From positions 8,932 to 72,931 of the IMG/VR virus record IMGVR_UViG_2654588123_000001: a stretch of 64,000 nucleotides of DNA, one strand, 5' to 3'. Of the stretch, positions 1,709 through 55,616 are shown piece after piece. Source of the stretch: a virus. Its lineage: Duplodnaviria > Caudoviricetes. Under the pieces are notes generated by a model. The model had not been told where the DNA came from, did no database searches, and saw only the letters and a program-made list of their open reading frames with translations. Both the position numbers and the translations under genes were made by a program. The stretch's first letter is position 1; each line of letters opens with the position of its first letter.

Positions 1709-2299
1709 TCACTCAAGCAACCAATTGCCGTCGAACCACCGGTTTCCGACCTTCAGCCTGTCGGTGAACTGCCACATCTTGGCACCGGGCCAGTCACAGG
1801 AATGCGCCCATTGCGCGCACCAGATGGGAGCGTACTCCGGCAGCAGGTTCGTGTAGATGCGGTTCTCCAACCAGTCCAGACTTGCGTAGAGACCGCTGTT
1901 ATATCCGTGGCGGTTGCATTCGGTGATGAACTCGTTGCACATGGCGGTGATGGTCTGTGCCGATGGCATTCCATTGCGCTCCTTGTATCCGTCACCGTCT
2001 TCCATATCAAACCACACGCCCATCTCCAGCCGGCCCGGTGTCAGGCCGCTGGATTCCAGGATATGCATCATGTAAGATGCCTCCTCCCAGGCGCCCACCC
2101 TGTTCAGCGCATAACTGTAATAGTAGACGCCAATCTTCAGCCCCGCCTCCAGCGCCTCATTGACATTCTTGTAGAACAGGGTATCCAGATGCCCGCGCCC
2201 GTAACCAAGCCGGATGATGGCAAACTCTATCCCGTTCTCCTTCACGGCCTTCCAGTCGATCCAGCCGTTGTTTTCCGATACATCAATTCCTTTTATCAT
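1709..2299 (-). CDS. Endolysin, glycoside hydrolase family 25 (no cell-wall-binding domain)
   Basis: GIDVSENNGWIDW, AIIRLGYG, GVYYYSYA, VWFDMED, WQFTD: GH25 muramidase motifs. Confidence 0.92.
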   Translation of the reverse strand: MIKGIDVSENNGWIDWKAVKENGIEFAIIRLGYGRGHLDTLFYKNVNEALEAGLKIGVYYYSYALNRVGAWEEASYMMHILESSGLTPGRLEMGVWFDMEDGDGYKERNGMPSAQTITAMCNEFITECNRHGYNSGLYASLDWLENRIYTNLLPEYAPIWCAQWAHSCDWPGAKMWQFTDRLKVGNRWFDGNWLLE

Positions 2300-2799
2300 T
2301 ATTTTCCCCTCCGTTGTAATAACTCATACAGCCGGGCCATGCTCTTCACCCCGGCATCTCCCAGGTTCTCGATGATGGACAGCGCCTCGTTCATAGCAAG
2401 GTAGCCGCAAACAATCTGGACGATCTGGGACGAACCCCCAGCGGCCATGCTCATCAGATCAAAGATGGCAGCCATCAGGAAGCAGATACAGTAAACGAAC
2501 AGCTTGCTGACACCGCGTGTGCGCATCTCCGTGCTGTTTATCTTCCGTGCCTTCCGGGCGCTGTTGATGCCCTTCACGGCATCAAAAAAAGCAGGGGCCT
2601 CATTCCCCTGCTCCACCAGGTATGCGTAACTGATCGCTATCCATTTTGTCAGAATGTCCAGGTACAGCAGTACCCCGAACCCGATCATAAGGATGGAATA
2701 TTTGTGCGTCACCAGACCCAGCACCGCTCCGGCAATCACCTTGATGTTTAGCATATCCCCCATCTTATCCAACACAGCGTGGACGATTTCCTTATCCAT
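2299..2799 (-). CDS. Phage holin (holin family 4-like)
   Basis: Several TM segments; DILTKW...INSTEMRTRGVSK...NEALSIIENL pattern; adjacent to the endolysin. Confidence 0.85.
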   Translation of the reverse strand: MDKEIVHAVLDKMGDMLNIKVIAGAVLGLVTHKYSILMIGFGVLLYLDILTKWIAISYAYLVEQGNEAPAFFDAVKGINSARKARKINSTEMRTRGVSKLFVYCICFLMAAIFDLMSMAAGGSSQIVQIVCGYLAMNEALSIIENLGDAGVKSMARLYELLQRRGK

Positions 2800-2800
2800 A

Positions 2801-3931
2801 CTATCCTTCTCCTTTCCGGGCTTCTGCCCTTAAATCCCTGTATTCCGGTATCTCGCACTCCGTCAGTTTCTTCCGGTTCCGTAAGACGGATCCGTAAATC
2901 CGGCGGAGAACTTCACAATGCACATATTCCGTCCCATCTTCCGTAAACAGCCCTATCGGGCAGCGGTTCCTGCAGATGGATACCACAGGACAGCTGAAGC
3001 ATTTCCGTGGTATCAGATCTTCCCACACCATTCGGTGCTTCTCCAACATCTCCTCGCAGGAATCATCAATAGAGGAAATGACCCTGCTGTCGTTATGGCA
3101 CCGGACGATGCTCCCGTCGAATTTGAATGACAGTGATATAACCCCGGGCGCACAGGGCGGAAACGGGGATGTTGTAAAATGTTCCCGCCTGAACAGGTCA
3201 TCGCTGATAAACTTTTCCACGAAAAAGTTGTACCGGTTCCCATACGGGTCGTTTCCTGCGATGATGTCGTCCGCCAGGGCATCAATCGCCCGTTCTATCT
3301 GCCCTTCCCGGAAGGTATAGATGTCTTTTGGGATATCGGACAGCACATTGATAAGCCCCATATCCACGATGGTCTCCGGAAACAGTTCTTCGAGCATGGC
3401 AAACGCCCTGACCGGATCATCGTTCAGGGCGTTGAACACAAAATTCACGGAACGCTTCTTGCATTCCAACAAGGCCTCAATGTTTTCTTTTGATGGGACT
3501 GCGTTCCGTACCGCCACCGGATTTGGCGCATCGTAGGACATCGTGAACAGTACCCTGTGCCTGTTGCAGAAATCTGCAATCTCCTTTGTCAGAAGCAGCC
3601 CGTTCGAAAAGATTCGGTACTGGCGTGGAAATATACCACGGGACTCAAACATCAATATGTATCGCTTAATCGTCTCCCAATACAAGAGCGGCTCCCCGCC
3701 CCAGAAGTAAATCCGGGAAAAGAAGCCGTTTTTCACAGACAGCCATTTCTTCAGGAACAGTATCACCTTCTCCGGCAGTTCGGAATCCGGCTGCTGGCAG
3801 AACGTGTTTTTTATGGGCGTCTGGGAACAGTGCCGGCATGTCATATTGCAGGCAGGGCCTAACAACAAAAAGACCGCAGACAAACCGTGCAGATATTCTG
3901 TTTCCCCAGTCCAAGGTTTATTCACCGCCAC
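2801..3931 (-). CDS. Radical SAM protein with SPASM domain
   Basis: CNMTCRHC (CxxxCxxC), GGEPLL, FSNGLLL; C-terminal CAPG...C...CFSCPVVSICRNRCP...C. Probable GTG start at 3931, with GGAGGT 7 nt upstream. Confidence 0.9.
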   Translation of the reverse strand: MAVNKPWTGETEYLHGLSAVFLLLGPACNMTCRHCSQTPIKNTFCQQPDSELPEKVILFLKKWLSVKNGFFSRIYFWGGEPLLYWETIKRYILMFESRGIFPRQYRIFSNGLLLTKEIADFCNRHRVLFTMSYDAPNPVAVRNAVPSKENIEALLECKKRSVNFVFNALNDDPVRAFAMLEELFPETIVDMGLINVLSDIPKDIYTFREGQIERAIDALADDIIAGNDPYGNRYNFFVEKFISDDLFRREHFTTSPFPPCAPGVISLSFKFDGSIVRCHNDSRVISSIDDSCEEMLEKHRMVWEDLIPRKCFSCPVVSICRNRCPIGLFTEDGTEYVHCEVLRRIYGSVLRNRKKLTECEIPEYRDLRAEARKGEG

Positions 3932-5243
3932 TGCCTTCACCTCCGGAACCTTCACCGCTTGAGCCTTCATACTCATCATAATACCCGACAATCTTGAATG
4001 TGGTATTGGCCGTCAATGCGCCTGAAGTCCAAGACTCTTTACTATGGATAGCCGTTTTATATGTGCTTCCCTGCGTGATTTTCAAATAGTATCTGTAACT
4101 GTTCTTGGTATCCGTAATCTTTATTGTGGTGTTGTACTTGATGGTCACGGAAGACGGCTTGGTCGCTGTTGCAGAAGAACCGGATGTGTTGGTATATGTA
4201 ATGGTCGCTGTCGGTGTCCACCCGTCAGCCGTCCATGTGAACGTAATCTTCGGTGTGATAGCCGTAGCCGCCGTTGCGCTGACAGTCGTGGCTGCAGTCA
4301 CCGTTCCGCTGGAGCCGGACAATGTACCCTTTGTATATCCCGTCGCAGCCGCCAGGCTTGCTGTCCAGGTCGTGCCGTATCCGACAGTAAAACTCTGTGC
4401 CGAAGAGGTAGACGTCTTCGTAACTTCCGAAGCAAACGTGCCGTCGGACTTTTTGTTTTTGTACTTCAGCGTTATGGTCTGATGGGAAGTGGCATTCAGT
4501 TTCAGCGTAAACGTCTTGTATGTGGCAGAACCTGCAGATACCGTTGTAGCCGCTGTCACGGTACCGGAAGACCCGGGGGTTAACGCGCCTGCCGTCCACC
4601 CCGTCGCGCCGGCTATCGTAGCCGTCCATGTGGTCCCATGCCGGACTGTAAAGGACTGTGCGGAAGATGTGGAAGTCTTTGTGACCTCTGCCTCAAATCC
4701 GGTGTTGGCGGCGTTCCGGTTCTTGTATTTCAGCGTGATGGTCTGGTGGGTTGTCGCATTCAGTTTCAGCGTGTAGGTCTTCAGGCTTGCTGCACCTGCG
4801 GTAACTGTCACGTTTGCATTAGTCAGCGTACCACTGCTGCTGGGTGTCAATGAACCGGCGTTATACCCGGTAGCCCCAGCCACCGTTGCCGTCCAGGTAG
4901 TACCGTAAGGAAAATACTTGTTGCCGCTCGTCCAGGACGCCCCACCCGCCGTGACCGTGATTGTCTCGTTGGAAACAGCAGTAATGCCAAGCCGGATGAG
5001 GGATTTTGTCGCCAGCACATATTCCGTTCCGCCTTTTTCTATATGAACCGGGGTCCCGTAATCGTCATAAAACACTTGGGAATAGGTTGTCGGATATAAA
5101 GCAGCATACAGGTTCGTTCCATCTACGGTCACCGGCAGATATGCAGAATTGTATACTTTCGCTTCCGCCGTGGTCGTATACAAATCACAGGTGTATGTGG
5201 TGCTTCCCTTTGTGACTTTCAGGGTGTGTGATGATTTGCTCAT
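3918..5243 (-). CDS. Thr/Ser-rich tail fibre/adhesin with internal repeats
   Basis: Position after the tail tip; 88-aa repeat (TLKLNAT.HQTITLKYKN...GTTWTA); acidic Gly/Ser C-terminus. Confidence 0.7.
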   Translation of the reverse strand: MSKSSHTLKVTKGSTTYTCDLYTTTAEAKVYNSAYLPVTVDGTNLYAALYPTTYSQVFYDDYGTPVHIEKGGTEYVLATKSLIRLGITAVSNETITVTAGGASWTSGNKYFPYGTTWTATVAGATGYNAGSLTPSSSGTLTNANVTVTAGAASLKTYTLKLNATTHQTITLKYKNRNAANTGFEAEVTKTSTSSAQSFTVRHGTTWTATIAGATGWTAGALTPGSSGTVTAATTVSAGSATYKTFTLKLNATSHQTITLKYKNKKSDGTFASEVTKTSTSSAQSFTVGYGTTWTASLAAATGYTKGTLSGSSGTVTAATTVSATAATAITPKITFTWTADGWTPTATITYTNTSGSSATATKPSSVTIKYNTTIKITDTKNSYRYYLKITQGSTYKTAIHSKESWTSGALTANTTFKIVGYYDEYEGSSGEGSGGEGSGGE

Positions 5244-5254
5244 AATCCATCACC

Positions 5255-6178
5255 TCAGACAATCCATATCTTGCTCCCGTCGGGGAACTGAATTTTGCCG
5301 TCCGTTGTAAAAACAAAACTTTTACGGTTCGCAATCGTTCCGGCGTTTGTATGAATGTAGACCGTGCTGTCTGCCGTCAAGTGCAGATTTTCCGTATCGC
5401 CATTTAAGGTAATTGCTGACACCAGGCTCTTCGGGGATTCACCGGCGCCTATCACAACCGCACCACTGCTCTGGATGCCGAATCCGGTCCCATTGTTCGT
5501 GGTGGAGCTTGAAGGGAACACAAAAAACGGGTTCGTCGTATGCACCGTTGCGTCTGCATCCGTTGCCTTTAACTGATACCGGAACGGAAGATTGATGCCG
5601 GTTCCCTGTGTACTCGCTGTCCCGCTCACATTTAATGTGAAGTTGGATGCCGTCGTTACCGCACCGCTGAATGTACCGCCGGCCAGGGGCATATAGGTGC
5701 TCCCGGTCACTGCGATGGTAACCTTGTCGTTGGTTGCATCCGGTGTCAGCGTAATCGCATTGCCGGCTGCAAACGTAAGCGTGTCCTGTTTCGCATCTGC
5801 CTGAATGGTCGTACTCCCCACCGTGACATTAGCAAAGGTGTTCTGGTTCACCTCCGCCCCTGTCGCAATACCATTCAGCTTCGTCTTATCCGTGTTGCTC
5901 ATGAATCCGTTGCTGCTGGTGGTCGCGGCATCATGTACATGCCCGTCGATGGAAAAATATGTGGAGTCATGCCCATCCAGCTTATCTGCGTTCAGGTTAA
6001 CGCACTTTGTCCCATTGGATTTCGGTATGTTGCCGCTGGCATTTCCCGGTGACAGACCGCACAGCTTCAGGGCATTCACGATTTGGTCCTCGATGACCGC
6101 GCGTAGCTGTTCCCGCTGTTTCGCAGGAAACTCCGACAAATACTCGTCATCTGCCGGAAATGTGGAATCGTATGCCAT
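5255..6178 (-). CDS. Tail fibre protein
   Basis: NADKLDGHDSTYF, AATTSSNGFMSNTDKTKLNGIA and YMPLAGGT motifs typical of phage fibres. Confidence 0.75.
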   Translation of the reverse strand: MAYDSTFPADDEYLSEFPAKQREQLRAVIEDQIVNALKLCGLSPGNASGNIPKSNGTKCVNLNADKLDGHDSTYFSIDGHVHDAATTSSNGFMSNTDKTKLNGIATGAEVNQNTFANVTVGSTTIQADAKQDTLTFAAGNAITLTPDATNDKVTIAVTGSTYMPLAGGTFSGAVTTASNFTLNVSGTASTQGTGINLPFRYQLKATDADATVHTTNPFFVFPSSSTTNNGTGFGIQSSGAVVIGAGESPKSLVSAITLNGDTENLHLTADSTVYIHTNAGTIANRKSFVFTTDGKIQFPDGSKIWIV

Positions 6179-26239: not shown

Positions 26240-27985
26240 TTAAGTCTCTCCGCAATAATACGCAATGCCCGCCAGCACGAAGAACACGCATGGCAGCGCC
26301 ACTCCGTTACCCCACATCTTGTATTCCGCCGAATCGGTATGCGGGTTCTTCAACCATTTGATGACCTGGTTCCGGGTACGTGCCTTCTTGGCAGTTCCCA
26401 TCACTCGCCTATGCGTCTCGAACACATCCATCCAGAAGCGGATTTCCTCATCGGTCGGCTCCGGTGTTTCCAAATTAGCACACCACCAGTCCGGAAATCC
26501 CTGGAGCCTGGCGCATTCCGTCGGCGTCAGTCTGCGGACTGCATACCTGAAGTTTATCAATGGGGGATCCTTGTAATCGGTAGCCACCAGCGACCCCACC
26601 TTCTCCTTTGCTGCATTTGTGAAGAACGATGCCTTCGTGGAACAGTAAGTCACCTTTTCCGAGGAGCCCTGGATAGCGACTACTGCTATACCGCCCTGGT
26701 TGCTCCCCGGCATGTTCCCGCCTCTGTCAACGGTCCGGCAGGTGTCGCTTTCATAGGCATGGTTCCGCATGTTCTGCGTCCCGTCTGATGATTGGCGCAC
26801 GTCAAAGGTCTTCACGGTCTCCACTACAGCAATTCCACCCTGGTTGCAGGTCGGATTGCCACCGTTGGCATCCAGCGTCCGGGAAGTTTCCGCGTCATAA
26901 AACCCGGATTTTGGGTTGTCCGATTTCATGGAGTTACTGTCCTTGGAACAGATACCGAAAGTGTCATGCTCCACCACAAAAGGCTGGTTGTTCCCTCCAG
27001 TTCCGTAAGTGGACAGCACGGTAGGCGCTGTTTCCACAGGTCCGGTATATCGGGTATCCTGGCTGTGGTTCTCGTACACAGCGGCAGGAACCACCCCGGC
27101 ACGGAGCGTAGGAGCCGTTTCAGCCTCATAGCCGATGTTCCCGGCTTTCGCAGAGTGTTCCGTACAGAATCCCGCCGACATCACAACCGGCGGGTGATGT
27201 GCTTCAGCGCGGAGTGTGCAGGTGACGTCCTCCGTCACGCTCATGACCACACCGCCCTGGTCGTTCAGGCAGATAGTTCCGCCTGTCTCTCCAGCGCTGC
27301 CTTCAACACGGCAGGTAGTTCTTTGCCACGCGCGGAAGCCCTCTGCAGAATACCCAGACAAGCCTTCCGACTCAAATAATATTTTTCCGGCACAGTGGCC
27401 AGTAAGATGTCCGACAAGATAGATGCGTTTTCTGCGCTGGGGCACGCCCCAAGCGTCTGCGTCGAGGACGCGCCAGGCAACGGAGAACCCATCACCCAGG
27501 ATGCACCCTGCCGGCTCCCATTTCGCAGATCCAGGTACTGAAACCGAACCGCCGCAGATGCCGCAGATTTCCTCGAGGACTTTCTGGAAGTCGTCCCCTC
27601 CGTGGCTGGAAAAGGCTCCGGGTACATTTTCCCAAACAATGAACCTTGGATATATTCCATTGGTCTTCTCCCTCATTTCCTTAATGATACGAATGGCCTG
27701 ATGGAACAGGCCGGACTGACTGCCTTCCAGTCCTGCCCGTTTTCCGGCGATAGAAAGGTCGGTGCAAGGGCTGCCGAAGGTGATGATGTCCACCGGTTCC
27801 AGTTCACCGCCATCCAATGTATTTACATCGCCATAGTGCTTGACGAACGGCAGGCGTTTGGTTGTAACCCGTATCGGGAAAGGTTCAATTTCACTTTGCC
27901 ACACGGGCTTGATTCCCGCCAGGATTCCACCCAGCGGAAAGCCTCCGCTCCCGTCAAACAGACTCCCCAGCGTCAGTGTTCCCAT
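26240..27985 (-). CDS. Phage DNA (cytosine-5)-methyltransferase
   Basis: SLFDGSGG (motif I), GSPCTD (IV), ENVPG (VI), QRRKRIYL (VIII), RLQGFP (IX), GNGV (X). Confidence 0.93.
   Translation of the reverse strand: MGTLTLGSLFDGSGGFPLGGILAGIKPVWQSEIEPFPIRVTTKRLPFVKHYGDVNTLDGGELEPVDIITFGSPCTDLSIAGKRAGLEGSQSGLFHQAIRIIKEMREKTNGIYPRFIVWENVPGAFSSHGGDDFQKVLEEICGICGGSVSVPGSAKWEPAGCILGDGFSVAWRVLDADAWGVPQRRKRIYLVGHLTGHCAGKILFESEGLSGYSAEGFRAWQRTTCRVEGSAGETGGTICLNDQGGVVMSVTEDVTCTLRAEAHHPPVVMSAGFCTEHSAKAGNIGYEAETAPTLRAGVVPAAVYENHSQDTRYTGPVETAPTVLSTYGTGGNNQPFVVEHDTFGICSKDSNSMKSDNPKSGFYDAETSRTLDANGGNPTCNQGGIAVVETVKTFDVRQSSDGTQNMRNHAYESDTCRTVDRGGNMPGSNQGGIAVVAIQGSSEKVTYCSTKASFFTNAAKEKVGSLVATDYKDPPLINFRYAVRRLTPTECARLQGFPDWWCANLETPEPTDEEIRFWMDVFETHRRVMGTAKKARTRNQVIKWLKNPHTDSAEYKMWGNGVALPCVFFVLAGIAYYCGET
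27265..27660 (-). CDS. Nested out-of-frame ORF; C5-MTase beta-like polypeptide
   Basis: LSDILLATVPEKYYLSRKACLGILQRA...GKELP; own RBS (GAGGGAG) 8-9 nt before the ATG. Confidence 0.7.
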   Translation of the reverse strand: MEYIQGSLFGKMYPEPFPATEGTTSRKSSRKSAASAAVRFQYLDLRNGSRQGASWVMGSPLPGASSTQTLGACPSAENASILSDILLATVPEKYYLSRKACLGILQRASARGKELPAVLKAALERQAELSA

Positions 27986-29213
27986 CCTTAACCTCCAATT
28001 CGTCATACCGGTAGGTCAAGCCATCCCGGACGACTTCTACATTTTCGGAACTGCCCACCTGCTCGATGTACCGTTTCACTATCACATCGCAGAATTTTTC
28101 GTCCAGCTCTATGGTGTAGCAAATCCGGTCGGTCTGCTCACAGGCAATGAGCGTAGAACCGCTGCCACCGAACGGATCCAAGACATTAAAGTTGGACATG
28201 CTGGAATTCAGGATCGGATACGCCAACAGCGGCACCGGCTTCATGGTCGGATGATCCGCATTCTTCTTCGGTTTGTCAAACTCCCAAATTGTTGATTCTT
28301 TTCGTCCTGTGTACCATTCATGTTTGCCGGTTTTCTTCCAGCCGAACAGGATGGGTTCGTGCTTCCACTGATACGGAGACCTGCCCAAAACGAGGCTTTG
28401 CTTGACCCAGATGCAGGTTCCGGACAAATAAAAACCCGCATCGCTAAAAGCTTTGCGGAAGTTGAGTCCCTCTGTATCTGCGTGGAACACATAGATGCTG
28501 GCATTGTCCGTCATCACCTGTTCCATATTTGTAAAGGCCGCCAACAGGAACTGATAAAAGTCATCGTTGTTCATGTTGTCGTTCTTGATTTTTCCGGCGG
28601 TGCCTTCGTAGTTGACGTTGTACGGAGGGTCGGTCACCACCAGGTTCGCCCTGTGACCACACATCAATGCGTCATAAGATTTCTCGTCCGTGCTGTCCCC
28701 GCAGTACAGCCGGTGCCGGCCTAATTTCCACAGGTCGCCACGCCGGGTCATGCAGGGTTTCTTCAGTTCTGCGTCAACATCAAAATCATCATCCTTGACG
28801 CCATTTTTTATATCGTCTTTAAACAGATCATCCAATTCCGCTGCCTCAAAGCCGGTAAGCGACACATCAAAGTCCGCTGCCTGCAAATCGTAAATCAGTG
28901 CCTGCAACTTTCCTTTGTCCCAATCGCCGCTGATTTTGTTCAACGCTACGTTGAGCGCCTTTTCCTTTTCCGGTGGGAAGTCCACTACTACACAGTCCAA
29001 TTCAGTAATGCCCAAGTCGCGCAGCACTTTCCAGCGTTGGTGGCCTCCAACGATGTTCCCTGTCTGTTTGTTCCAAATCACCGGCTCCACGTAACCGAAT
29101 TCCTGAATACTGCGTTTCAGCTTTTCATACTCCGGGTCACCCGGCTGCAAGTCCTTCCTTGGGTTATAGTCCGCCGGGATAAGCTCGTCCAGCTTTTTTG
29201 TGATGATTTCCAT
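27954..29213 (-). CDS. ParB-like domain + amino (N6A/N4C) DNA methyltransferase
   Basis: YNPRKDL...GYVEPVI...VGGHQR (ParB); TDPPYN; DPFGGSGST. Confidence 0.92.
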   Translation of the reverse strand: MEIITKKLDELIPADYNPRKDLQPGDPEYEKLKRSIQEFGYVEPVIWNKQTGNIVGGHQRWKVLRDLGITELDCVVVDFPPEKEKALNVALNKISGDWDKGKLQALIYDLQAADFDVSLTGFEAAELDDLFKDDIKNGVKDDDFDVDAELKKPCMTRRGDLWKLGRHRLYCGDSTDEKSYDALMCGHRANLVVTDPPYNVNYEGTAGKIKNDNMNNDDFYQFLLAAFTNMEQVMTDNASIYVFHADTEGLNFRKAFSDAGFYLSGTCIWVKQSLVLGRSPYQWKHEPILFGWKKTGKHEWYTGRKESTIWEFDKPKKNADHPTMKPVPLLAYPILNSSMSNFNVLDPFGGSGSTLIACEQTDRICYTIELDEKFCDVIVKRYIEQVGSSENVEVVRDGLTYRYDELEVKDGNTDAGESV

Positions 29214-29727: not shown

Positions 29728-30621
29728 TCACTGGTTCCGTATGGCTACCACAACAAGCACCGTGTGGCCTTTCTCGAGCAAAAGCTGCCGCGTCTCCCGG
29801 ATGGTGATGCCTGTCGTGATGATGTCATCAAACAGGATGACGTTCGGTTCCACGGGGTCGCGGTTCAGGATGAACTCCGGCTCGATGCGGCTCCGGTTCT
29901 TTGTCAGTACCACATCCTCATAAAACTGGATGCCCAGTTCCTCTTCCGCCAACTTGCATATCTCGGTAGCGAAGTGGAAACCCGTCTGGTGCCGTCTCCG
30001 TGGGGTTGTACATAAACACCAGCGATTTCGGGCAAGGTTGTCACCCAGGCTGCGTTCCAGGTAGTCCGCAAGGTTGAAGGCGAACGGCCGTACCGCACTC
30101 GGGTCAGCCTTGATCTCTTCCAGCGGCCTGCCTTTCTTCCCCGTCGCGAAAAACGTGGTATAAAAAAAGCCGGCCTTTTCCCGCGTCACTATGTGCTGTT
30201 TCATGTCGCACAGCTTTGCGGAAACTTTCCAGCTTTCCCGTTTCGTGTATTCATTTGGATTTTCGAAGCCGAATTGGCTCATATCAAGACTGATGTCATC
30301 CAGTTCTGCCGCCAACAGGTCGTTCAGCCACAGGGAATCTTCCCCGGCTTTGTTGTCTGCCAGCCGATACGCCTTCGCCTGTTCCGGCGTCAGGTTCCTT
30401 GCGTAGATGACCGGGACTGTCGGAAGCCCCAGCTTCTTTGCCGCCCGATAACGGGTGTGGCCGGCAAGGATGATGCCGTGGTCGTCACAGACGATAGGCT
30501 GGAGGAAACCGAACTCCCGGATACTCTCCGCCACCTTATCCACCGATTTGGTGTTGTCCCTGGGATTGTTCCCATACGGATATATCGTCCCTATTGGCAC
30601 CTGTTGCATCTGCTGTGCCAT
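29728..30621 (-). CDS. ParB-like domain fused to a phosphoribosyltransferase-like domain
   Basis: N-terminal PYGNNPR..SIREFGFLQPIV..ILAGHTR; C-terminal VILFDDIITTGIT (PRPP-binding loop). Confidence 0.8.
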   Translation of the reverse strand: MAQQMQQVPIGTIYPYGNNPRDNTKSVDKVAESIREFGFLQPIVCDDHGIILAGHTRYRAAKKLGLPTVPVIYARNLTPEQAKAYRLADNKAGEDSLWLNDLLAAELDDISLDMSQFGFENPNEYTKRESWKVSAKLCDMKQHIVTREKAGFFYTTFFATGKKGRPLEEIKADPSAVRPFAFNLADYLERSLGDNLARNRWCLCTTPRRRHQTGFHFATEICKLAEEELGIQFYEDVVLTKNRSRIEPEFILNRDPVEPNVILFDDIITTGITIRETRQLLLEKGHTVLVVVAIRNQ

Positions 30622-32600: not shown

Positions 32601-33209
32601 TTACACGCTTTTAAATGTATCAAAAAATTTATTGTTTTCTTCCATCATCTGCCTGTATTCGGTTATCAAATTATAGAAGGTAGCCCGTTTCAGTCCTGTT
32701 TTTTCCAAGAAATCCTTGGATGCTATCTTTCCATTTTCCCACTGTTCATATAACTCTGCCCAGTTTTCGGGGAACTCTATGCGGCTTCTCCCCGCGTTTG
32801 ATTTCCTGTTTTCAGGCATCTTCACAATCCGTTTCCCAGCCTGCGCCAGGATCGATTGCTGTATCGTCTGCAGGATTGCCTGATTTAACGGTTCTGATAC
32901 ACCCCATATGTATGTCGTCTTAAAATCATATATGAGCAGGATACGGGGCTTCTTTATAAACCAATCCAACTGCGTGACAACCTCGGCTTCATTCAGACCT
33001 AACGACGCGGGATTGGTTATGATGCACACATCATCTTCCTGCAGCATGTCCTTCAACTTTTCCAACTCTGCAAAACTCCGCCGTGGCTCACGACTGATAT
33101 AAATCTCGCGATGCTTATAAAACACGCCTATGCTCTGCAACACATACTGCAGTTCTTCTATCCTGTCTTCCTGTTTCGCGTAAAGATATATATTTCCTAT
33201 CCTGTTCAT
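32601..33209 (-). CDS. Degenerate resolvase-like protein with C-terminal HTH
   Basis: Resolvase-like layout (ELEKLKDMLQEDDVCIIT...SLG; GRSRIEFPENW...GLKRATFYNLI) but no YxRVS catalytic motif. Confidence 0.6.
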   Translation of the reverse strand: MNRIGNIYLYAKQEDRIEELQYVLQSIGVFYKHREIYISREPRRSFAELEKLKDMLQEDDVCIITNPASLGLNEAEVVTQLDWFIKKPRILLIYDFKTTYIWGVSEPLNQAILQTIQQSILAQAGKRIVKMPENRKSNAGRSRIEFPENWAELYEQWENGKIASKDFLEKTGLKRATFYNLITEYRQMMEENNKFFDTFKSV

Positions 33210-33222
33210 CAAATCACCACCT

Positions 33223-36200
33223 TTATGAAAGCAGGTTCTTGATTTTGGCACGCAAGCCCGTATCAAACTTAAAGCCTAAAAAATACTCCAGTTCCATACG
33301 GTCAAACCGTATCTTTGCACAATTCGTATCCGGTATTATGGTCGCACAAAGCTCGTTGGGAAGGGAATTTGCCCACTTCGTGCACAGTTTTTCACCTATG
33401 TTTTTATCCAGACAAATTATAACAAATTTTTCCTCAACCTTAAACATCTTTCTATTAGACCGATAAAGATCCTTTATTTCGTCCAATGCCTCTTCATAAG
33501 TAGGACGCGAATTATCACCATAATCCTCATCCCATGATAACACCTTCATATATTTTGGAACTTCATACCCATACTGACGAATAATATCCAAAATAATTTC
33601 CGAAGACCGTTTCATCAGTTCCGGAGAATATGTATCAGACAAATCTTTGCTTGTGTCAATCTTATCTAGTTCGTCAATCACATAAGGAAGCATCATAGAC
33701 AGATATTTCCGATAAAACGCGTTTCCCATCCTATGAATGATATGACCGCCTAATGTCTCATATTCCCTGCGAATCTGTTTACTGGGGAACTTAATATTAT
33801 AAGTCAGGAAAATCATCCGTTTACGGAGTTCTTTTTTAGGAGACGGATTATCATTACTGGCAAAGATAACCAACGGCTGGTTTTCGCGCATATGTTCTTC
33901 GCAACTTTGCGGGGACTTAATCATTTTACCAAATGAACTGACAAAATATTTATCTACTTCGTCAACAAAAATAGGAATACATTGATGAGACTCCTGGTAA
34001 GCAGCTAAATGGTCTCCTTTTGATACCGTTTTAGTACCCAATTGCTCATATTTATATCCGTTAACTTCTTTTCCCGTCATCATCTTTAATCCCAGTCTTA
34101 CCATAAATGTTTTCCCGCCGTCAGCTTTTGAATTTAAAAGCATGTACAGCGGAAGGGCTGATAATCCTTCAATTTTCTTGACTTTAGCCCTGCAACGGAA
34201 TATGGCATTAAAAACAGAAGAAAACATGGCGTTCAATAGTTTAAAATGATTGTGCTGTGCCGGCAAGATATTTCTAACCGGAACAAAACTCTTATAGTTT
34301 TCAAATGCCCCCAGCAAAAGCGATATATCCGTTTTCACTTCGTCATCAGAAGGGGACAAGTCTAATTCCTCATTACCAATGAAAACTTTATGAGCGCCGT
34401 AATCTATATTCATTCGGGGATAACCTTCAGATATCTGTTCCACTGTAACTTTTTTCAAACGGCACGTTTCTTCATTTACAAGAATTTTGTTTATCGTTTT
34501 AGCCGTAATTACTACATAGCCGTCTTTATTTTCCTTTAGCCTGGTGTTCTTTAAACATTCCTTGTACAGCGGTTCAAACTCTTCCATATCCTTATTGTAA
34601 TTTACAATAGTTAACTTTGTTTCTGGATTATCAACTTTTTGAACAACAATCGCAGTATCCACATATTTCGTTGCCTCTTCAATAATGGGATTCTCTTTAA
34701 GAGAAACTGGATCATTTTCATTCATAACCGCAGTATCTTCCTGTACGTTGGCATCTAAAACCACAGAAGAAGATAAGCTCTGTATTGTCTTAAAATCCTG
34801 TAAAACCATCTCATAAAATTCGTTATCGTCACAGAACGGATAATCTTCAATATGATGGTTCACATTCCATGCCGAGCCGGACAAATTAGCAGAAGGAAAA
34901 ATAACGCGGGTGCGACCATCATCTGCTTTCAATAAATAAATCTTCCTGTGGTCACACAGAAATTTAGGACATTTAATGTTTACCTCGCCTTCGATAACAC
35001 GTTTCGCAAATTCCTGATTATTACAAGCCAGTCGTTTCACGTTATGAGCGGACGCCAATATATATGCCATTTGTTCTGTAAGGGATTTATTAATCTTTTC
35101 ACTCAAAAATTCGGCACCGACCACGATATCCACAGTTTTAAATTTACTGCTCAATCTGGCTGCAAAGTTAAAATCAAACGAAAATGTAATTACCTTCAAA
35201 TCTGTGTATTCGCCTTCAAATAGATCCAAAGGATCTTGAAACAGCATCTCTTTAAAGTTCATGGAATAACATCTTGCCTTAAATCTATCTGTTCCTGCGC
35301 ACACAAATAAAATTTTCTCACACGTAAACGTGTGCGGAAATTTTTCTTTTATTACTTCAGCAACCTCAGTCAGATTTTTACAATTTTCAAACTCAACAAC
35401 TTCCGTAAGATGAATATCCTTATTGTAATCCGTGACCACGAAGTCTGTATCCTGGTTAGAAATATTTGGTAACGCATTCCAGTTCCAAACCCCAATCGCA
35501 GAATCAACATCTGGACCGTTCTTCCAGAACAAGCTTTTACGGTTTTCGAAGTATTTAGGTTTATTAGGGTCAAACATAAAAATCCTGATTTCCCCATTAA
35601 CTATATCAGCAATGCGATTAATCCATCTTTTTTCAGCAAAATGGTCTTGTTTCACCTGCCCAATAGATATATGCTGAAATTTGTTTTCGACAATATTTTC
35701 TTCATCGTCAGCGTAATTCGCCAAATCTCTATAGTGGTCTAACTCGGACTGTATTGCTGTAATGTTTTTGTCTTTACTTTCTAATTCTGCTTGTAATTGA
35801 ACAATCTCATCATTAGTTGCATTATATTTTGTTTCTACAGCAGTCAAGGTTTGTTCTTTTTCTCTAATGACTTCTTCTAATTCATTTATTCTATTATTTG
35901 CCTTAACTAATTCCTCCTTAATTTCACTAATAGCGTTAGTTGTATTCGAAAACTTCACTTTTGGCTGTATCAAAAGCACGTCTTTAAAAAGTTTAATATA
36001 ATCCTTGCTCCTAGTATCATTGGTAAGTTTAAAATACAAATCTACATTCTCGTTAAAAACACTTATCGGAATTGTTTTTAAAAGGGCTTCGTTTTTTGAC
36101 AACCCTTCATCTTCAAGTTTTTTACTATATACATTAATCTCTCTTAACCATTTCCGAACCACCTCTGTCATAAAACGATTGATGAAAGGTTTTTCTATGT

Positions 36201-36375
36201 TATTTATTACTAGTGTAATCGTATCCTTATCCGATAACTTTGCAGCACGGAATCCTGGTCGTATATGAGCAAACTCTTTAGAGTTTTGTTCAAAACATTT
36301 ACGTATCTCAGAAAGATCTATTTGCTTGCATAAATATTTGATTTCCTCTTTTGTTAAACTAGTAAGTACTATCAT
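33223..36375 (-). CDS. 1050-aa protein: coiled coil + PLD-like (HxK...SAN) domain + P-loop ATPase
   Basis: DHRKIYLL...FPSANLSG; SKADGGKTF; IFVDEVD; helical segment at about aa 150-215; low GC. Confidence 0.7.
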   Translation of the reverse strand: MIVLTSLTKEEIKYLCKQIDLSEIRKCFEQNSKEFAHIRPGFRAAKLSDKDTITLVINNIEKPFINRFMTEVVRKWLREINVYSKKLEDEGLSKNEALLKTIPISVFNENVDLYFKLTNDTRSKDYIKLFKDVLLIQPKVKFSNTTNAISEIKEELVKANNRINELEEVIREKEQTLTAVETKYNATNDEIVQLQAELESKDKNITAIQSELDHYRDLANYADDEENIVENKFQHISIGQVKQDHFAEKRWINRIADIVNGEIRIFMFDPNKPKYFENRKSLFWKNGPDVDSAIGVWNWNALPNISNQDTDFVVTDYNKDIHLTEVVEFENCKNLTEVAEVIKEKFPHTFTCEKILFVCAGTDRFKARCYSMNFKEMLFQDPLDLFEGEYTDLKVITFSFDFNFAARLSSKFKTVDIVVGAEFLSEKINKSLTEQMAYILASAHNVKRLACNNQEFAKRVIEGEVNIKCPKFLCDHRKIYLLKADDGRTRVIFPSANLSGSAWNVNHHIEDYPFCDDNEFYEMVLQDFKTIQSLSSSVVLDANVQEDTAVMNENDPVSLKENPIIEEATKYVDTAIVVQKVDNPETKLTIVNYNKDMEEFEPLYKECLKNTRLKENKDGYVVITAKTINKILVNEETCRLKKVTVEQISEGYPRMNIDYGAHKVFIGNEELDLSPSDDEVKTDISLLLGAFENYKSFVPVRNILPAQHNHFKLLNAMFSSVFNAIFRCRAKVKKIEGLSALPLYMLLNSKADGGKTFMVRLGLKMMTGKEVNGYKYEQLGTKTVSKGDHLAAYQESHQCIPIFVDEVDKYFVSSFGKMIKSPQSCEEHMRENQPLVIFASNDNPSPKKELRKRMIFLTYNIKFPSKQIRREYETLGGHIIHRMGNAFYRKYLSMMLPYVIDELDKIDTSKDLSDTYSPELMKRSSEIILDIIRQYGYEVPKYMKVLSWDEDYGDNSRPTYEEALDEIKDLYRSNRKMFKVEEKFVIICLDKNIGEKLCTKWANSLPNELCATIIPDTNCAKIRFDRMELEYFLGFKFDTGLRAKIKNLLS

Positions 36376-36423
36376 TTATTAAACCCCTTTCGATTCATTT
36401 TTAGAAAAGAAAAAAAGTAAAAC

Positions 36424-38046
36424 TCATTTTATCAACTTATTTAAATTAGTAATTCTCATGAATTCTGGTTTTCGCATTTGTTTTAACAATGCAATACTGA
36501 TTTCTTGATTGTTAATCAAAGCCATAATTTTATGATATGTTTGAAGGTAACCGTTCCTCTTTAACAGTCTTATGCCGTAATACGCCCACATAGGAATAGG
36601 AACCATCTGCCCACAAATACAATTCGTTAACGACTTTGCTAACTCTTTATCTTCAATTTCAATTCTTTGCCCCTTAACGTGTGCTTTGATATGAAAAGCA
36701 ATTCCCGATTCAATGATTAAATACATCTCATTTGTGTTAGTTTTGTAAGGAATTGCGGTTAACGCACTTCTAATCGGTTCATAACGAAACGTCCGGTTTA
36801 AACTCCCAATATATAACTCCATTTTGCTGTTCGCAATTACTGAAAAATCGGACTTAAAGATATCCTCTGTTACTTTATCCCATGGGGTTATTACATGATT
36901 TGGCCGTTCAATTTGTATTTCGTATGAAAAGTTTGGCCTAATAATAAACCTATCCTGAAAAACGGCTTCCCTTCCAACATATTTCCTGTCAACAGAAAGA
37001 ATTGATGGCGTTTTCCCAACATAAATCTCAGTAGTATAACCACCTGAACGGTTTCTATGCAAGTCAACAGGTGCTGTCGCAAATTCTTTATACAGATACA
37101 CATTTGGGCTGCTATTGCCGCTTGAAACAGAACAAACAACAGAAGAATTATTTTTAACAGGAATAAAAAATTCTTGAACCACTACCGGTGGCCATAACGG
37201 AATTAACTCAGGTTGTTTTTCTAATAACACTACCCCAAAAAACCTGTTAAAATAGTCGCTAACGGCCAAAAAACGAGCTTTGTTATCTAAATCTACGTTG
37301 ATTTCAAATACATACACCTTGTAAGCGTTATTTTTTAAGTACAGTTTTCCTATCTCTGTACATTTTATTTCTTTATGAGGCGGAATGCCAATCTTTGTCA
37401 CAAGATAGTAGGTGCGTTGTGTCGAAATACAGTCCCCTCTGCGGATTTTTTTCCCGCCGGTTTCTTCAAAAGAAAATATAGCGCCACCAACGCCAAAACC
37501 ATCCGCAAAACCTGCCCATTGTTTTGAAAACAATCGCATTGAAGAAGTACCGCTAATTTCAATACTATAGTTTCTAGTATTTTTAGGAACAAAATTTACA
37601 GGTATCAGTGTGAGCCGGTCTTCAAAAAAGTTGCTCGAATCTATTCTTTTGGCGATTTTAGTATTGTTATCACCAATAATATTAACTATCAACTTTTGCG
37701 TTTCCGCTTGCATGAGAAGATGTCTGCCTATGGCAGGGAACCCTATATTTAATTGCAGGTTACCGCTGACAACACCAGTTAAATATAACGACAGTCCAAC
37801 CCGTTGGTACAGGCTTAATTTAGCATGACCGTCTACCCTTTTGTCACATTCAGGCGTTTGATCTGTTTTGACTTTATGATAAAAGTGATTAGGTTGGTTA
37901 CCACCTTTTGATCTAAAATAAACAATCTCGCCGCATTCAGGACAGCGAAAACGTGACAATTTATTAGGAATGTACTTTCCATAAAAATCATCAGCACAAA
38001 CCTCTATTTCTGTCCCAATCGCATACCTGTCAACTGCGTATCTCAC
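36424..38046 (-). CDS. Hypothetical protein with N-terminal Zn-finger-like (CoiA-type) module
   Basis: FRCPECGE...FYH...PEC; GTG start with GGAGG RBS. Confidence 0.7.
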   Translation of the reverse strand: MRYAVDRYAIGTEIEVCADDFYGKYIPNKLSRFRCPECGEIVYFRSKGGNQPNHFYHKVKTDQTPECDKRVDGHAKLSLYQRVGLSLYLTGVVSGNLQLNIGFPAIGRHLLMQAETQKLIVNIIGDNNTKIAKRIDSSNFFEDRLTLIPVNFVPKNTRNYSIEISGTSSMRLFSKQWAGFADGFGVGGAIFSFEETGGKKIRRGDCISTQRTYYLVTKIGIPPHKEIKCTEIGKLYLKNNAYKVYVFEINVDLDNKARFLAVSDYFNRFFGVVLLEKQPELIPLWPPVVVQEFFIPVKNNSSVVCSVSSGNSSPNVYLYKEFATAPVDLHRNRSGGYTTEIYVGKTPSILSVDRKYVGREAVFQDRFIIRPNFSYEIQIERPNHVITPWDKVTEDIFKSDFSVIANSKMELYIGSLNRTFRYEPIRSALTAIPYKTNTNEMYLIIESGIAFHIKAHVKGQRIEIEDKELAKSLTNCICGQMVPIPMWAYYGIRLLKRNGYLQTYHKIMALINNQEISIALLKQMRKPEFMRITNLNKLIK

Positions 38047-51023: not shown

Positions 51024-52469
51024 TTACAAATCAAGGCCTTCAGGATTCAGTTTCATTTCAGCTAAATATAATCGGAATGCCATCTGAGCAGGAATCAGTC
51101 TGACCTGAATTCTTTGTAGGTCTAAATTGTCTAACATTTGTAAAGACACTGCACCCTTATTAATCACCCTATCTCCATCGGTAGGCATTAGAAAGCAGTT
51201 CCTAACGTACGCAAACTGATGATCCTTTATGAACTTTTGATAGGCAAGTTGATATAAATACTGTTTTGTGACTGATTCAATACCAGGGTGTGCCCTTGGT
51301 TGAACGCCTGGCTCAAGCAAAGCATTATAATACTTTGCGTCAAATATAACGAAAATCTTCTTGTCGTCCTTTTCCACAATAGTTATCAAGTCTGGTATAA
51401 GTGTATCTACAGAAGTCTTTCCCGTTATAGTCCATAAAGGCCTCTCTATTAAATCTATTAGTTTCGAGCTTGGATAATATTCTGGTCTTAAGGGAACCGG
51501 TAACCGCAAAGATGATAAGGGAGCATCTAGTTTGTTGTCCAATATATCCGCACATACCCTCTCCCAAACAAGGCTAAAACTATTAGTGCCAAACATAGAC
51601 AAACAATCTGTATCATACAAACTCCCACTATGAGCAATGTAAGCATAAATAGTTTTAAGCAGGATTTGTTTTCGTGTATTGAACTGAATGTTCAGCTCTT
51701 TTTCGATTCTGCTTAAAATATAGTCTCTATCGCCAAAATCATCTAAGAGCTCATCCGAAAGATTAACTTCTGTAATTTCAAATATTTCCAACAAATCAGC
51801 TTGACGAAGTTCTTTTGATGCAGTAGTCAAAATGCATTCATGCAGTCGCTTAAAGTAATCGTAATTATCTTCAATACGCTTTTTTGTCTGCAGATCAATA
51901 TAATATGGTCGATTATCACTCAAAAACATAAACGTCTCGTTTATGGTTTTATCCCAAAGTATTTCTCCTGATCCATTGTGTTGTACAATATCTTCAGTAT
52001 TTGTATAGGAACCATTTTCATAGTAATCGGTCAGAAAAAACAAAAGCACCGCCAAAAGATTAAATGCATGATCCACGCTTGAGTTATTAAACACTCTAAC
52101 GATTTGTTCTTTTTTATTAAACTTTTGAAGAACCTTTATAATCTGGTGAAGCTCTTTCTTCGGTTCGGAATTATGAAGCAAATACTTGGGATAACACTTT
52201 AAAACACGACCAGCCACTGTAATAACCCCAACAAAGGTTAATACATACAAGTATTCGTCTTCACCGGTTTCAACATCAGCAACCTCAATATCTTCTTCAA
52301 GAAGTTCCGACATACTTCTTTGCGTGTCGGTAGCTCTTACAGCTTTAAAAACACCAAATTCTTTTAGCTTTCGGATTATAGGGACAACCTTTTCTTCAGA
52401 ACATTCAAATATTGCACAAAGTTCCCTTTGCGAATATCTTTTTTGCTCACGTAGAAACTTAGAAATCAT
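51024..52469 (-). CDS. LlaJI-family (McrC-like) restriction endonuclease subunit
   Basis: GEILWDKTINE, FSLVWERVC, TLIPDL...IFDAKYY, VTKQYLYQLAY. Confidence 0.88.
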   Translation of the reverse strand: MISKFLREQKRYSQRELCAIFECSEEKVVPIIRKLKEFGVFKAVRATDTQRSMSELLEEDIEVADVETGEDEYLYVLTFVGVITVAGRVLKCYPKYLLHNSEPKKELHQIIKVLQKFNKKEQIVRVFNNSSVDHAFNLLAVLLFFLTDYYENGSYTNTEDIVQHNGSGEILWDKTINETFMFLSDNRPYYIDLQTKKRIEDNYDYFKRLHECILTTASKELRQADLLEIFEITEVNLSDELLDDFGDRDYILSRIEKELNIQFNTRKQILLKTIYAYIAHSGSLYDTDCLSMFGTNSFSLVWERVCADILDNKLDAPLSSLRLPVPLRPEYYPSSKLIDLIERPLWTITGKTSVDTLIPDLITIVEKDDKKIFVIFDAKYYNALLEPGVQPRAHPGIESVTKQYLYQLAYQKFIKDHQFAYVRNCFLMPTDGDRVINKGAVSLQMLDNLDLQRIQVRLIPAQMAFRLYLAEMKLNPEGLDL

Positions 52470-54694: not shown

Positions 54695-54710
54695 AAATAA
54701 TTCCCCTCTC

Positions 54711-55616
54711 TTATAATTTGATAATCCAGTCTGTGTTATGATCAAAGTCCCCATAGAAATCAAACCAATCCTTTTTAAAGCTATCCTTTTTAAAGAACCA
54801 GAATGTCTGCGAATTACACATCTGTTTGCATATATCACCAATTAGACTGGCACTTCTAATAGAAACGCTTGATAGAGTAATAACATTGCCATTAGTATTA
54901 AGTTTAAATAAAGGAGTTTGATTCATTATTTTAAGCCAATCAGACATATTCCTTCTCGCCCGGGTAAGCGCAGGAAGATCTTCTCCTGCATGACGACTTT
55001 GTAGTATACATGCACAGCAAGCTTTTAAATCCGTATGCTTCAAGCAGCGCACGACGTACCTCTGCATTTCATCGAGAGACAATACCGCTTGTTCACCTCT
55101 CTGCCACAGCTCATACAATATTTGCCAAACCATCACAGCCGGTCTAATAAGAATTCCACACTCTTCCTGCATCTCAGTAAATGTATCAAAATTGAATTCG
55201 CGCCCGTAGCTTTCTTTCAATGACGGGCTTAACTGCGACTTGTGACCATTAGGATACTGGTATCTCAAAACCTGTAAAGCAATCATCTCTTCGTAAGATA
55301 TTCGATGCGACAAATAAGCCATTGCAACAGGAGTTAATCTGATAACCTTCGAGATACGCGTGGAGTAAATCATGCCAAATTCACTCAAGATTTGCTGATA
55401 ATCTCTCCAAGCATCAACTTGGTTGCTGTCAGCCCGTACATTCATAGTTAGAATCCCATTTTGAACCAAATATTCGTTGATGATTTCTGCTTTAACCTCT
55501 TCACTATTGCAAAGAAGGCAAGCATTTAGCAAACCATCCACAACATCTTTGGAAAGTACCCCTGCGTGTTGTGTTATCGGCCAAGAGAGGCCATCATAAG
55601 GAATATCAGGATACAT
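54711..55616 (-). CDS. Third RM subunit (probable DNA-recognition protein)
   Basis: In-operon between the MTases and McrB; LRYQYPN...GILIRP resembles winged-helix recognition domains of type IIS enzymes; no clear catalytic motif. Confidence 0.55.
   Translation of the reverse strand: MYPDIPYDGLSWPITQHAGVLSKDVVDGLLNACLLCNSEEVKAEIINEYLVQNGILTMNVRADSNQVDAWRDYQQILSEFGMIYSTRISKVIRLTPVAMAYLSHRISYEEMIALQVLRYQYPNGHKSQLSPSLKESYGREFNFDTFTEMQEECGILIRPAVMVWQILYELWQRGEQAVLSLDEMQRYVVRCLKHTDLKACCACILQSRHAGEDLPALTRARRNMSDWLKIMNQTPLFKLNTNGNVITLSSVSIRSASLIGDICKQMCNSQTFWFFKKDSFKKDWFDFYGDFDHNTDWIIKL

Follow-up and report, generated by a model that had tools for sequence, protein, structure and literature searches.

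A radical SAM/SPASM enzyme and its putative C-terminal tail substrate in the fibre module of a prophage

Radical S-adenosylmethionine (SAM)/SPASM maturases are familiar as modifiers of antibiotic-like peptides and of a small number of cellular enzymes, sulfatases and amine dehydrogenase among them. QhpD, for example, is a radical SAM/SPASM enzyme that makes Cys-to-Asp/Glu thioethers inside the gamma subunit of quinohemoprotein amine dehydrogenase, which is not a peptide made on ribosomes and modified after translation (a RiPP). Haft's GRRM (TIGR04260/TIGR04261) is a cyanobacterial pairing, defined by bioinformatics, of a SPASM enzyme and a protein with a repeat of extreme Gly content in its C-terminal half. 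To our knowledge, no enzymatic side-chain maturation step has been described in virion assembly. Here, we report on a radical SAM/SPASM gene in the fibre module of a prophage from a gut bacterium and on the 441-amino-acid (aa) protein encoded directly upstream of it. Both lie in a 64,000-nucleotide (nt) stretch of viral DNA (IMG/VR record IMGVR_UViG_2654588123_000001, positions 8,932 to 72,931), the whole of which we call the window. A sequence-only reading of this DNA had suggested that the phage may modify its own fibre or the C-terminal peptide of that fibre, and comparative evidence, namely linkage, a shared tail, co-occurrence, and fold class, supports this suggestion. We consider it probable that the enzyme is a dedicated maturase and that the C-terminal tail of the 441-aa protein is its substrate.

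Several described systems resemble parts of this arrangement. The sulfatase-maturating enzyme anSME (anSMEcpe, PDB 4K36-4K39; TIGR03942) is about 370 aa long, with an N-terminal radical SAM motif, a C-terminal SPASM region, and no RiPP recognition element (RRE); it acts on a protein rather than on a leader peptide and oxidises Ser or Cys at its target to formylglycine (PMC8326336). PapB, which acts on freyrasin, and CteB, which acts on SCIFF (NF047865; PDB 5WGG), are ranthipeptide maturases of the SPASM type that make repeated short rings from Cys to a side-chain carbon of a nearby acidic residue, a few positions off, and freyrasin carries six Cys-to-Asp thioethers (PMC8326336). In the TQQ peptide, a streptococcal enzyme joins the Thr side chain to the alpha-carbon of Gln as an ether, with a hydroxyl side chain as the cross-link donor (PMC8326336). 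The same review covers precedents for epimerisation. In full-text searches, no publication on phage tail proteins matured by a radical SAM enzyme came to light; a cyanophage paper merely listed a radical SAM "maturase," as an antibiotic gene (PMC12801897). What appears to be new here is a Cys-free candidate substrate motif for radical SAM/SPASM protein maturation in a phage tail module, and this is well supported comparatively.

The enzyme and the tail of the upstream protein

All coordinates are positions in the window unless a locus is named, and the genes of interest are on the minus strand. The argument turns on the following features.

3918-5243, minus strand: adhesin-like protein of 441 aa, the candidate substrate (translation and AlphaFold2 model)
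3921-3983, minus strand: C-terminal tail of the 441-aa protein, YYDEYEGSSGEGSGGEGSGGE (translation)
3939-3944, minus strand: GGAGGT Shine-Dalgarno sequence of the radical SAM gene (sequence reading)
2801-3931, minus strand: radical SAM/SPASM enzyme, 376 aa from GTG 3931 (PF04055, 43.4 bits; phrog_1802, E=9e-27)
3827-3850, minus strand: CNMTCRHC, the CX3CX2C cluster motif (C28/C32/C35; translation, invariant in the alignment)
2915-3154, minus strand: SPASM region with seven Cys (C260, C278, C311, C314, C320, C324, C339)

The open frame of the radical SAM gene spans 2801-3991 on the minus strand. A start at GTG 3931, with GGAGGT at a 7-nt spacer, gives an N terminus equal in length to that of ATG-started homologues, such as the one in locus L004. 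As the sequence-only reading had it, this start and its Shine-Dalgarno sequence lie inside the last codons of the upstream gene, the last 14 nt of which overlap the start of the radical SAM gene. The same reading had described a complete radical SAM protein with a SPASM Cys set, and an alignment of 34 enzyme homologues with identity down to 23% (A1) bears this out: the ten Cys (three of the cluster motif and seven of the SPASM region) and FWGGEPLL are invariant in it. The conserved motifs are CNMTCRHC, FWGGEPLL, C260-x12-G273-x4-C278, C311-x2-C314-x5-C320-x3-C324, and C339. With 43.4 bits for PF04055 against a gathering cut-off of 29.5, the protein belongs to the radical SAM superfamily, and it has the seven-Cys pattern CX9-15GX4C...CX2CX5CX3C...C of the SPASM subfamily. 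The SPASM profile TIGR04085 scored 26.2 bits against a cut-off of 27, and PF13186 was not reported for the enzyme in the Pfam search.

The best NCBIfam matches of the enzyme are peptide or RiPP maturases, with PapB first and CcpM, HxsB, lachnocin, QhpD, YhhB, and anSME also among them. A PDB sequence search gave core matches only, to TigE (8VPO) and CteB. We also built an AlphaFold2 model from the alignment, with a predicted local distance difference test (pLDDT) score of 92.7 and alternating strand and helix elements in its core. Its best solved folds are ChlB, anSMEcpe, CteB, TigE, SkfB, and SuiB, with template modelling (TM) scores of 0.6-0.65 over the whole chain, and all of these are peptide- or protein-modifying enzymes; viperin-like and sugar-modifying radical SAM enzymes are found among the lower-ranked folds. 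By its predicted fold, the enzyme thus belongs to the peptide- or protein-modifying SPASM class. No RRE domain is present, because only about 20 residues precede the cluster motif, and the model has one short helix there. In layout and size its closest counterpart is anSME, whose substrates are proteins. A large protein database contains 122 clusters of homologues, all metagenomic and without a name except for one JGI record that bears the generic label of a radical SAM/SPASM protein. A cultured-phage collection yielded remote relatives only, at 23-31% identity (Ralstonia RSP15/RP12/RP31 and Achromobacter JWF). The window genome carries a single copy of the enzyme, and its other radical SAM paralogues are only remote.

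The 441-aa protein ends in ...VGYYDEYEGSSGEGSGGEGSGGE followed by the stop codon. The sequence-only reading had noted an unusual low-complexity tail at this point; on translation, the tail consists of an aromatic-acidic stretch and then three S-x-G-E units, and it contains no Cys. We found no Pfam or PHROG match for the protein, to a fibre family or to any other. Its AlphaFold2 model (pLDDT 91.8) is a chain of Ig-like beta-sandwich domains, which in a structure search fold like Gram-positive pilins and adhesins and also resemble predicted viral tail-collar, FdeC-like, and baseplate-J-like proteins (BFVD). Residues 423-441, the last 19, are predicted to be disordered (pLDDT 34-45), and in the model the tail forms an exposed, disordered C-terminal extension. 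The radical SAM gene had been placed between a tail-fibre gene and the holin. Its position in the fibre module stands, but the upstream protein is Ig-like and adhesin-type in its predicted fold rather than a classical fibre, so "tail fibre" is a loose label for an adhesin-type protein of the fibre module.

None of the described systems matches the locus in all respects. anSME is the second-best structural match (TM 0.63-0.65), but TIGR03942 scores 32.7 bits against a cut-off of 349, the C/S-x-P/A-x-R target motif does not occur in YYDEYEGSSGEGSGGEGSGGE, and no sulfatase gene is found among the window neighbours; here seven SPASM-region Cys are conserved and the context is a phage tail module. 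PapB and CteB are brought close by sequence and fold and by the C-x-x-E/D units in Cys-tailed relatives of the window tail. However, NF047865 scores 45.1 bits against a cut-off of 340 and matches residues 17-135 only, the enzyme here lacks an N-terminal RRE, the candidate substrate is the end of a 441-aa structural protein, and the window tail has Ser for Cys, with a donor-acceptor spacing of three rather than four. The QhpD profile TIGR03906 is among the top NCBIfam matches (E=2.2e-9), but its score is 36.5 bits where the cut-off is 453, it is longer than the enzyme here by about 90 residues, no qhp genes are present, and the window tail is Cys-free. The TQQ system is likened by chemistry alone: it has the hydroxyl donor that Ser-only tails would require, but it uses a leader peptide, an RRE, and other residues. 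ChlB, a triceptide synthase of about 375 aa (PDB 9GM3), is the best structural match (E=8e-13, TM 0.61-0.65), and many tails have an aromatic-acidic stretch before the Ser/Cys units; however, an aromatic residue is not conserved in all tails, and sequence identity is 16%. GRRM is cyanobacterial rather than phage-borne and is not among the 25 best NCBIfam matches of the enzyme. Finally, the pairing of tail and enzyme agrees with the earlier idea of a RiPP-like maturation, but the definition of a RiPP as a short leader-plus-core precursor with a protease does not apply to a 441-aa multidomain protein with no protease or exporter gene in its module or in the loci read.

Linkage of tail and enzyme across phages

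The sequence-only reading had proposed surveying the neighbourhoods of enzyme homologues for tail genes and for a distinctive C-terminal peptide on the preceding protein. We fetched 80 loci from IMG/VR and 69 from species-representative genomes. Enzyme homologues of 30-60% identity lie in the tail-fibre regions of several tail-module types, and the linkage to tail-fibre modules was seen in every long contig examined. Taken over all homologues so placed, identity runs from 30% to 97%. The enzyme stands behind Phage-tail_3 (J-like) tail genes and before the Mtd/reverse transcriptase pair of a diversity-generating retroelement (DGR) in L001, in a DUF4815 module in L004, behind a P2-like baseplate and ahead of a holin and amidase in L005, and as four tandem paralogues behind a Collar protein in L006. 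The distinctive C-terminal peptide is present even where the protein bodies are unrelated. The upstream proteins end in ...GPSSGEGSGGEGA (L001), ...GSGGEGSGGEGADSGGDGGHGGGGGDF (L004), ...GGSAGEGSGGEGN on an open reading frame (ORF) of 62 aa (L005), and ...GSGCGAEGCGGESSS (L006); in L024 and L031, the tailed proteins of 172-206 aa end in ...DDSSCGSEGGCGGGEA or ...DDSCSVDSSGCGGEGG. Among the bodies that bear such tails are proteins with Ig repeats (441-595 aa), fragments of a glycine-rich domain (62-75 aa and 267 aa), and the proteins of 172-206 aa. The short tailed ORFs resemble the first strands of the glycine-rich domain, the rest of which is encoded by the adjacent gene.

Common to the tails is a run of [Ser/Cys]-x-Gly-Glu units a few residues from the C terminus. 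An aromatic-acidic stretch (YYDEYE, PYDY, PWDD) precedes these units in many tails; the tail of L021 has no aromatic residue and retains SGGE. Cys-tailed relatives carry CGGE, CGAE, and CSVD units, whereas the window tail has SGGE and SSGE and no Cys.

We then counted how often tail and enzyme occur together. In loci L001-L156 we scanned every closed ORF of 50 aa or longer, on either strand, and called a tail where the last 25 residues contained two or more [CS]xx[ED] units and were 30% Gly or more; enzyme bit scores in the surveyed loci are those against the enzyme family profile. The definition picked out 27 of 15,228 ORFs in the 156 loci, and all 27 were on the same strand as a radical SAM gene scoring at least 378 bits. 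For 26 of the 27, the end of the ORF falls in a range from 112 nt within the radical SAM open frame to 380 nt ahead of it; the remaining one, in L006, encodes a second tailed protein and lies across the block of four enzymes. Every locus with an enzyme of at least 379 bits and with upstream DNA has a tail, while a few loci with lower-scoring, distant radical SAM relatives have no such tail upstream. The reverse census, for the exact pattern E-G-[S/C/T/R]-G-G-E-G-x-stop in IMG/VR, returned 31 stretches, of which 8 were genuine Gly/Ser-rich tails and 23 were chance matches. A radical SAM gene (469-514 bits) was found in 7/7 of the genuine tails with enough downstream DNA, and the eighth is on the contig of L028, which carries a radical SAM gene; none (0/23) lay beside the chance matches. 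A looser DNA pattern, GEG[S/C]GGEG, was uninformative, since among the matches listed most were chance occurrences in GC-rich DNA or scaffold-like proteins.

Homologues of the 441-aa protein (321 in all) allowed a second comparison. Their ends fall into SGGE-type, Cys-acid (...YYDDSDCSDGCGDGCGDD, ...YDDCNCGDDS), short Gly/Asp, and tail-less classes. Three loci (L276, L277, and L278) have a near-identical order of DUF4376, a 109-aa gene, the adhesin, and genes of 444-458, 160-161, and 381 aa. L276 has neither a tail nor a radical SAM gene, L277 has a Cys tail and a radical SAM gene of 253 bits, and L278 has an SGGE tail and a radical SAM gene of 486 bits; the latter two enzymes are of different subfamilies. 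Tail-less homologues in L275 and L279 and homologues with Gly/Asp-only tails in L280 and L313 are without a radical SAM gene, and L281, with a CNCGDDS tail, has two radical SAM genes within 3 kb. Overall, tail and enzyme are present or absent together: the enzyme is found in 8/8 distinct loci with a Ser/Cys-acid tail and in 0/5 without one (Fisher p ~8e-4, indicative only, since the loci are related). The L275 contig is that of an SU10-like podovirus, and its tail-less 441-aa homologue gives the database protein only when TAG is read as Gln; therefore, this phage is stop-codon-recoded.

A quick maximum-likelihood tree of 90 enzyme sequences has long branches, and its deeper order is tentative. 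The enzymes of [S/C]GGE tails form one clade (Shimodaira-Hasegawa-like approximate likelihood ratio test, 99). Within it, all 22 of the 22 Ser-only tails fall in one subclade (96), whose sole extra member is a contig without upstream DNA, and the enzymes of Cys-GGE tails are sister or basal to this subclade. The outgroup consists of the enzymes of Cys-repeat tails (NCNCNC..., CxC...), which in the surveyed loci pair with more distant enzyme subfamilies. As reconstructed in this tree, the enzyme phylogeny follows tail type. In these comparisons, tail and enzyme form one evolutionary unit that is joined to different structural proteins in different phages, has been lost as a whole, and has co-diversified.

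Where close homologues have a named host, it is a gut anaerobe (Segatella copri, Phascolarctobacterium, Bacteroides sp. CAG:545, or a Tenericutes metagenome-assembled genome), and window-like DNA is present in bovine-gut and other gut metagenomes. Such a habitat fits an oxygen-sensitive enzyme. In two mixed-culture metatranscriptome runs, contigs of >10 kb represent a relative of the entire stretch at 95% identity, and a gut metatranscriptome contains a 438-nt contig spanning the junction at 3749-4186; both may be DNA carry-over and are not evidence of transcription.

Other arrangements were seen in the surveyed loci. The four tandem radical SAM paralogues of L006 (8001-12297 and 13184-15295; also in L007) are accompanied by a Sel1-repeat protein, and this block is flanked on both sides by Ig-repeat proteins ending in ...SGCGAEGCGGESSS and ...SYGCGGEGAQ. 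At L001 8001-12908, the radical SAM gene directly precedes an Mtd-like target protein (PF21916) and a reverse transcriptase, so that one fibre module holds two diversification or modification systems, the DGR and the radical SAM enzyme. Distant phage radical SAM enzymes (140-270 bits) pair with Asn-Cys or Cys-x-Cys repeat tails such as ...NCNCNCDCDCGDDGGP, ...NCNCNCACNCNCACNCNC, and ...CQSCQSCQWCQTCQ (L032-L043, L049, L051, L060-L062, L079, L085, L087, L108, and L125), and in these loci a further radical SAM-like gene often separates tail and enzyme. A second recurrent ending, ...GGDDGGHGGGGGDF, is found in P0224, P0227, P0235, and P0237 and at L004 6613-8001; in L313 neither Ser/Cys units nor a radical SAM gene accompany it, and in L004 it comes after the SGGE units.

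Possible chemistry and alternative explanations

If the tail is the substrate, the enzyme would act late in infection on the disordered tail of the adhesin-like protein encoded just upstream. It would bind the tail directly in the manner of anSME, because like anSME it has no RRE domain. With SAM and three [4Fe-4S] clusters, it would abstract a hydrogen atom within each [S/C]-x-G-E unit and, most likely, close a short ring between side chains, with Ser/Cys as the donor and the beta or gamma carbon of a Glu/Asp three residues further along as the acceptor. In the Cys-tailed relatives the ring would be a thioether; in the Ser-only clade, to which this prophage belongs, it would be an ether. Alternatively, Ser or Cys could be converted to formylglycine, or residues could be epimerised. 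A tail-associated adhesin would thereby gain a tip that is chemically stapled or reactive and that resists proteases, made in anaerobic gut or rumen hosts, where radical SAM enzymes work. We favour the ring model because the donor position swaps between Cys and Ser while the acidic residue three positions on is kept, because the donor-acceptor spacing resembles that of ranthipeptides, and because only seven SPASM-region Cys are conserved, which would presumably leave a cluster site free for substrate, as in CteB-type enzymes. Granted that the tail is the substrate, we would assign about one third of the weight to rings, about one fifth to formylglycine, and the rest to epimerisation or other changes. 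The narrower proposal that the Ser-only clade makes Ser-oxygen-to-Glu side-chain ether rings on a virion adhesin tail is a tentative one, and we regard it as doubtful on balance. Such an ether would be the oxygen analogue of the ranthipeptide thioethers, and we know of no enzyme described so far that makes it.

Several observations weigh against a dedicated tail maturase or against this chemistry. Short Gly/Asp-rich tails occur on homologues without any radical SAM gene (P0148 and P0227), so part of the tail may have an enzyme-independent role. The surveyed loci are mutually related, and their counts are not independent samples. The support is comparative throughout: from it we infer both that the tail is modified and in what way, and also that the 441-aa protein would be a receptor-binding component of the virion. 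The window tail is Cys-free, and no radical SAM enzyme is known to us to cross-link Ser to Glu. Seven rather than eight Cys are conserved in the SPASM region, which makes the ligation of one auxiliary cluster ambiguous; the same three plus seven Cys occur in Ser-tail and Cys-tail enzymes of all clades, and a clade-specific residue comparison revealed no obvious ligand change between them. No NCBIfam equivalog assignment was obtained for the enzyme, with all scores far under the cut-offs.

We weighed these points together with three other explanations. It is unlikely, in our judgement, that the enzyme has another target, be it a tail protein, the host envelope, or a small molecule, with the tail serving as a flexible acidic linker or assembly signal. 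The Gly/Asp-rich tails without radical SAM genes would fit such a role, as would the lower-ranked viperin-like and sugar-modifying folds and the few loci in which distant, lower-scoring enzymes have no upstream tail. However, enzyme presence tracks the Ser/Cys content of the tail and no other part of the module, near-syntenic phages that differ in tail type have different enzyme subfamilies at the same position, the tail-plus-enzyme unit moves among unrelated bodies, and the top folds are all peptide or protein modifiers. Less likely again is that the enzyme acts on the tail to produce a small released peptide, a RiPP signal or toxin cut from its carrier protein. No protease or exporter gene stands beside the pair in any locus read or in the window module, and the tail ends proteins of 441-595 aa among tail genes in the window, L004, L006, and L088. 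In many loci the tail does lie on an ORF of 62-75 aa that looks like a leader-plus-core precursor, and RiPP maturases are the best NCBIfam and PDB sequence matches of the enzyme, but these short ORFs are similar to the initial strands of a structural domain, rich in glycine, that continues in the next gene.

There is very little probability left for the tail being a by-product of overlapping translation signals, with GGAGGTGAAGG-type Shine-Dalgarno repeats read as Gly-Glu-Gly in the upstream frame. The idea arises naturally in the window, where the Shine-Dalgarno sequence and start codon lie within tail codons, and several gene calls run the radical SAM N terminus through the overlap. Yet the loci encode E-G-S-G-G-E-G with codons that vary at almost all of their third positions, and Ser is encoded by TCN in some and by AGY in others. 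Cys can also take the place of Ser at the same site, which is a protein-level pattern. The motif is also kept where the genes do not overlap (L005 and L006) and where a whole gene separates tail and enzyme (L001, L011, and L012), and it is always in frame with the upstream ORF and at its end. We therefore rejected this explanation on the synonymous codons, the Ser/Cys swaps, and the non-overlapping and gene-separated loci. A dedicated maturase acting on the tail is the reading we prefer.

Surrounding genes and significance

The genes around the pair are those of a late phage region.

6221-11509, minus strand: J-like central tail fibre/host-specificity protein, 1762 aa (phrog_31, E=1.7e-164; PF13550, PF24801)
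5255-6178, minus strand: tail fibre protein, 307 aa, ending in ...FPDGSKIWIV (phrog_7389, E=2.6e-14)
2299-2799, minus strand: holin, 166 aa, beginning 1 nt past the radical SAM stop (PF05105, 48.6 bits; phrog_199)
1709-2299, minus strand: GH25 endolysin (PF01183, 108.5 bits; phrog_291)
1-909, after the endolysin in reading order: serine recombinase (Pfam/PHROG search)

Further along the window we found genes for a tape measure protein, an HK97-type major head protein, a portal, and a large terminase; after the head and terminase genes come methyltransferase/ParB genes and then a replication module. From this content of tail, head, portal, terminase, methyltransferase/ParB, and replication genes, the element is a siphovirus-type prophage of about 47 kb. 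The radical SAM gene had been said to have phage-core GC content, and its region does, at 50-54% against 50-59% across most of the prophage. It had also been said that no promoter or terminator separates the gene from the late operon. A consensus scan indeed found no promoter-like site between 6178 and 2300; it also found no convincing terminator there, but weak terminator-like hairpins lie within the radical SAM ORF (3468-3448) and within the holin ORF (2614-2588 on the minus strand, 10 pairs plus a T run, graded weak in the scan). A better terminator-like hairpin (6222-6199) is directly 3' of the J gene. In total the scan gave 15 sites against a shuffled expectation of 9.5 +/- 3.1, which we read as not above expectation. 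The hairpin at 2588-2614 precedes the PF05105-matching part of the holin ORF (residues 71-162); the true holin start may be later, or the first 60 codons may be a separate small gene.

The fibre proteins that precede tailed proteins share the ending ...(V/Q)FP(D/N)G(S/T)xxW(I/V)x-stop (window 5255-6178, L001 6136-6741, and L004 5682-6593), while the tailed proteins that follow them differ among the three. This ending may be a docking site.

Elsewhere in the window, three genes lie side by side: one (26240-28006) carries a DNA methyltransferase domain, another (27954-29213) joins a ParB-like domain at the N terminus to a DNA methyltransferase domain, and the third (29728-30621) encodes a ParB-like protein. 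Between the ParB/methyltransferase genes and the replication module is a low-GC island (32601-38046; 39-40% against 50-59% for most of the prophage) with three minus-strand ORFs of 221, 1050, and 540 aa without Pfam or PHROG matches, which may be a cargo or defence insert. A LlaJI-like restriction pair (51024-54841), in which an RE_LlaJI endonuclease (481 aa) follows a 791-aa AAA_5 (McrB-like) protein, appears to lie past the replication module of the prophage.

The system is compact, with one enzyme and one short tail, and is thus directly testable; should the enzyme accept tails in fusions, proteins could be stapled with it. The enzyme clade of the Cys-free Ser-Gly-Gly-Glu tails derives from relatives with Cys tails, so these tails may point to a new radical SAM reaction on Ser or Glu. 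If the Ser-to-Glu ether proposal is true, the phage would carry a radical-SAM-stapled, redox-insensitive, protease-resistant fibre tip, which would be relevant to adsorption in the gut. If the enzyme is the maturase of the tail, it would add enzymatic side-chain chemistry to virion assembly and offer a way into host recognition or the stability of particles in the phages of the anaerobic gut and rumen.

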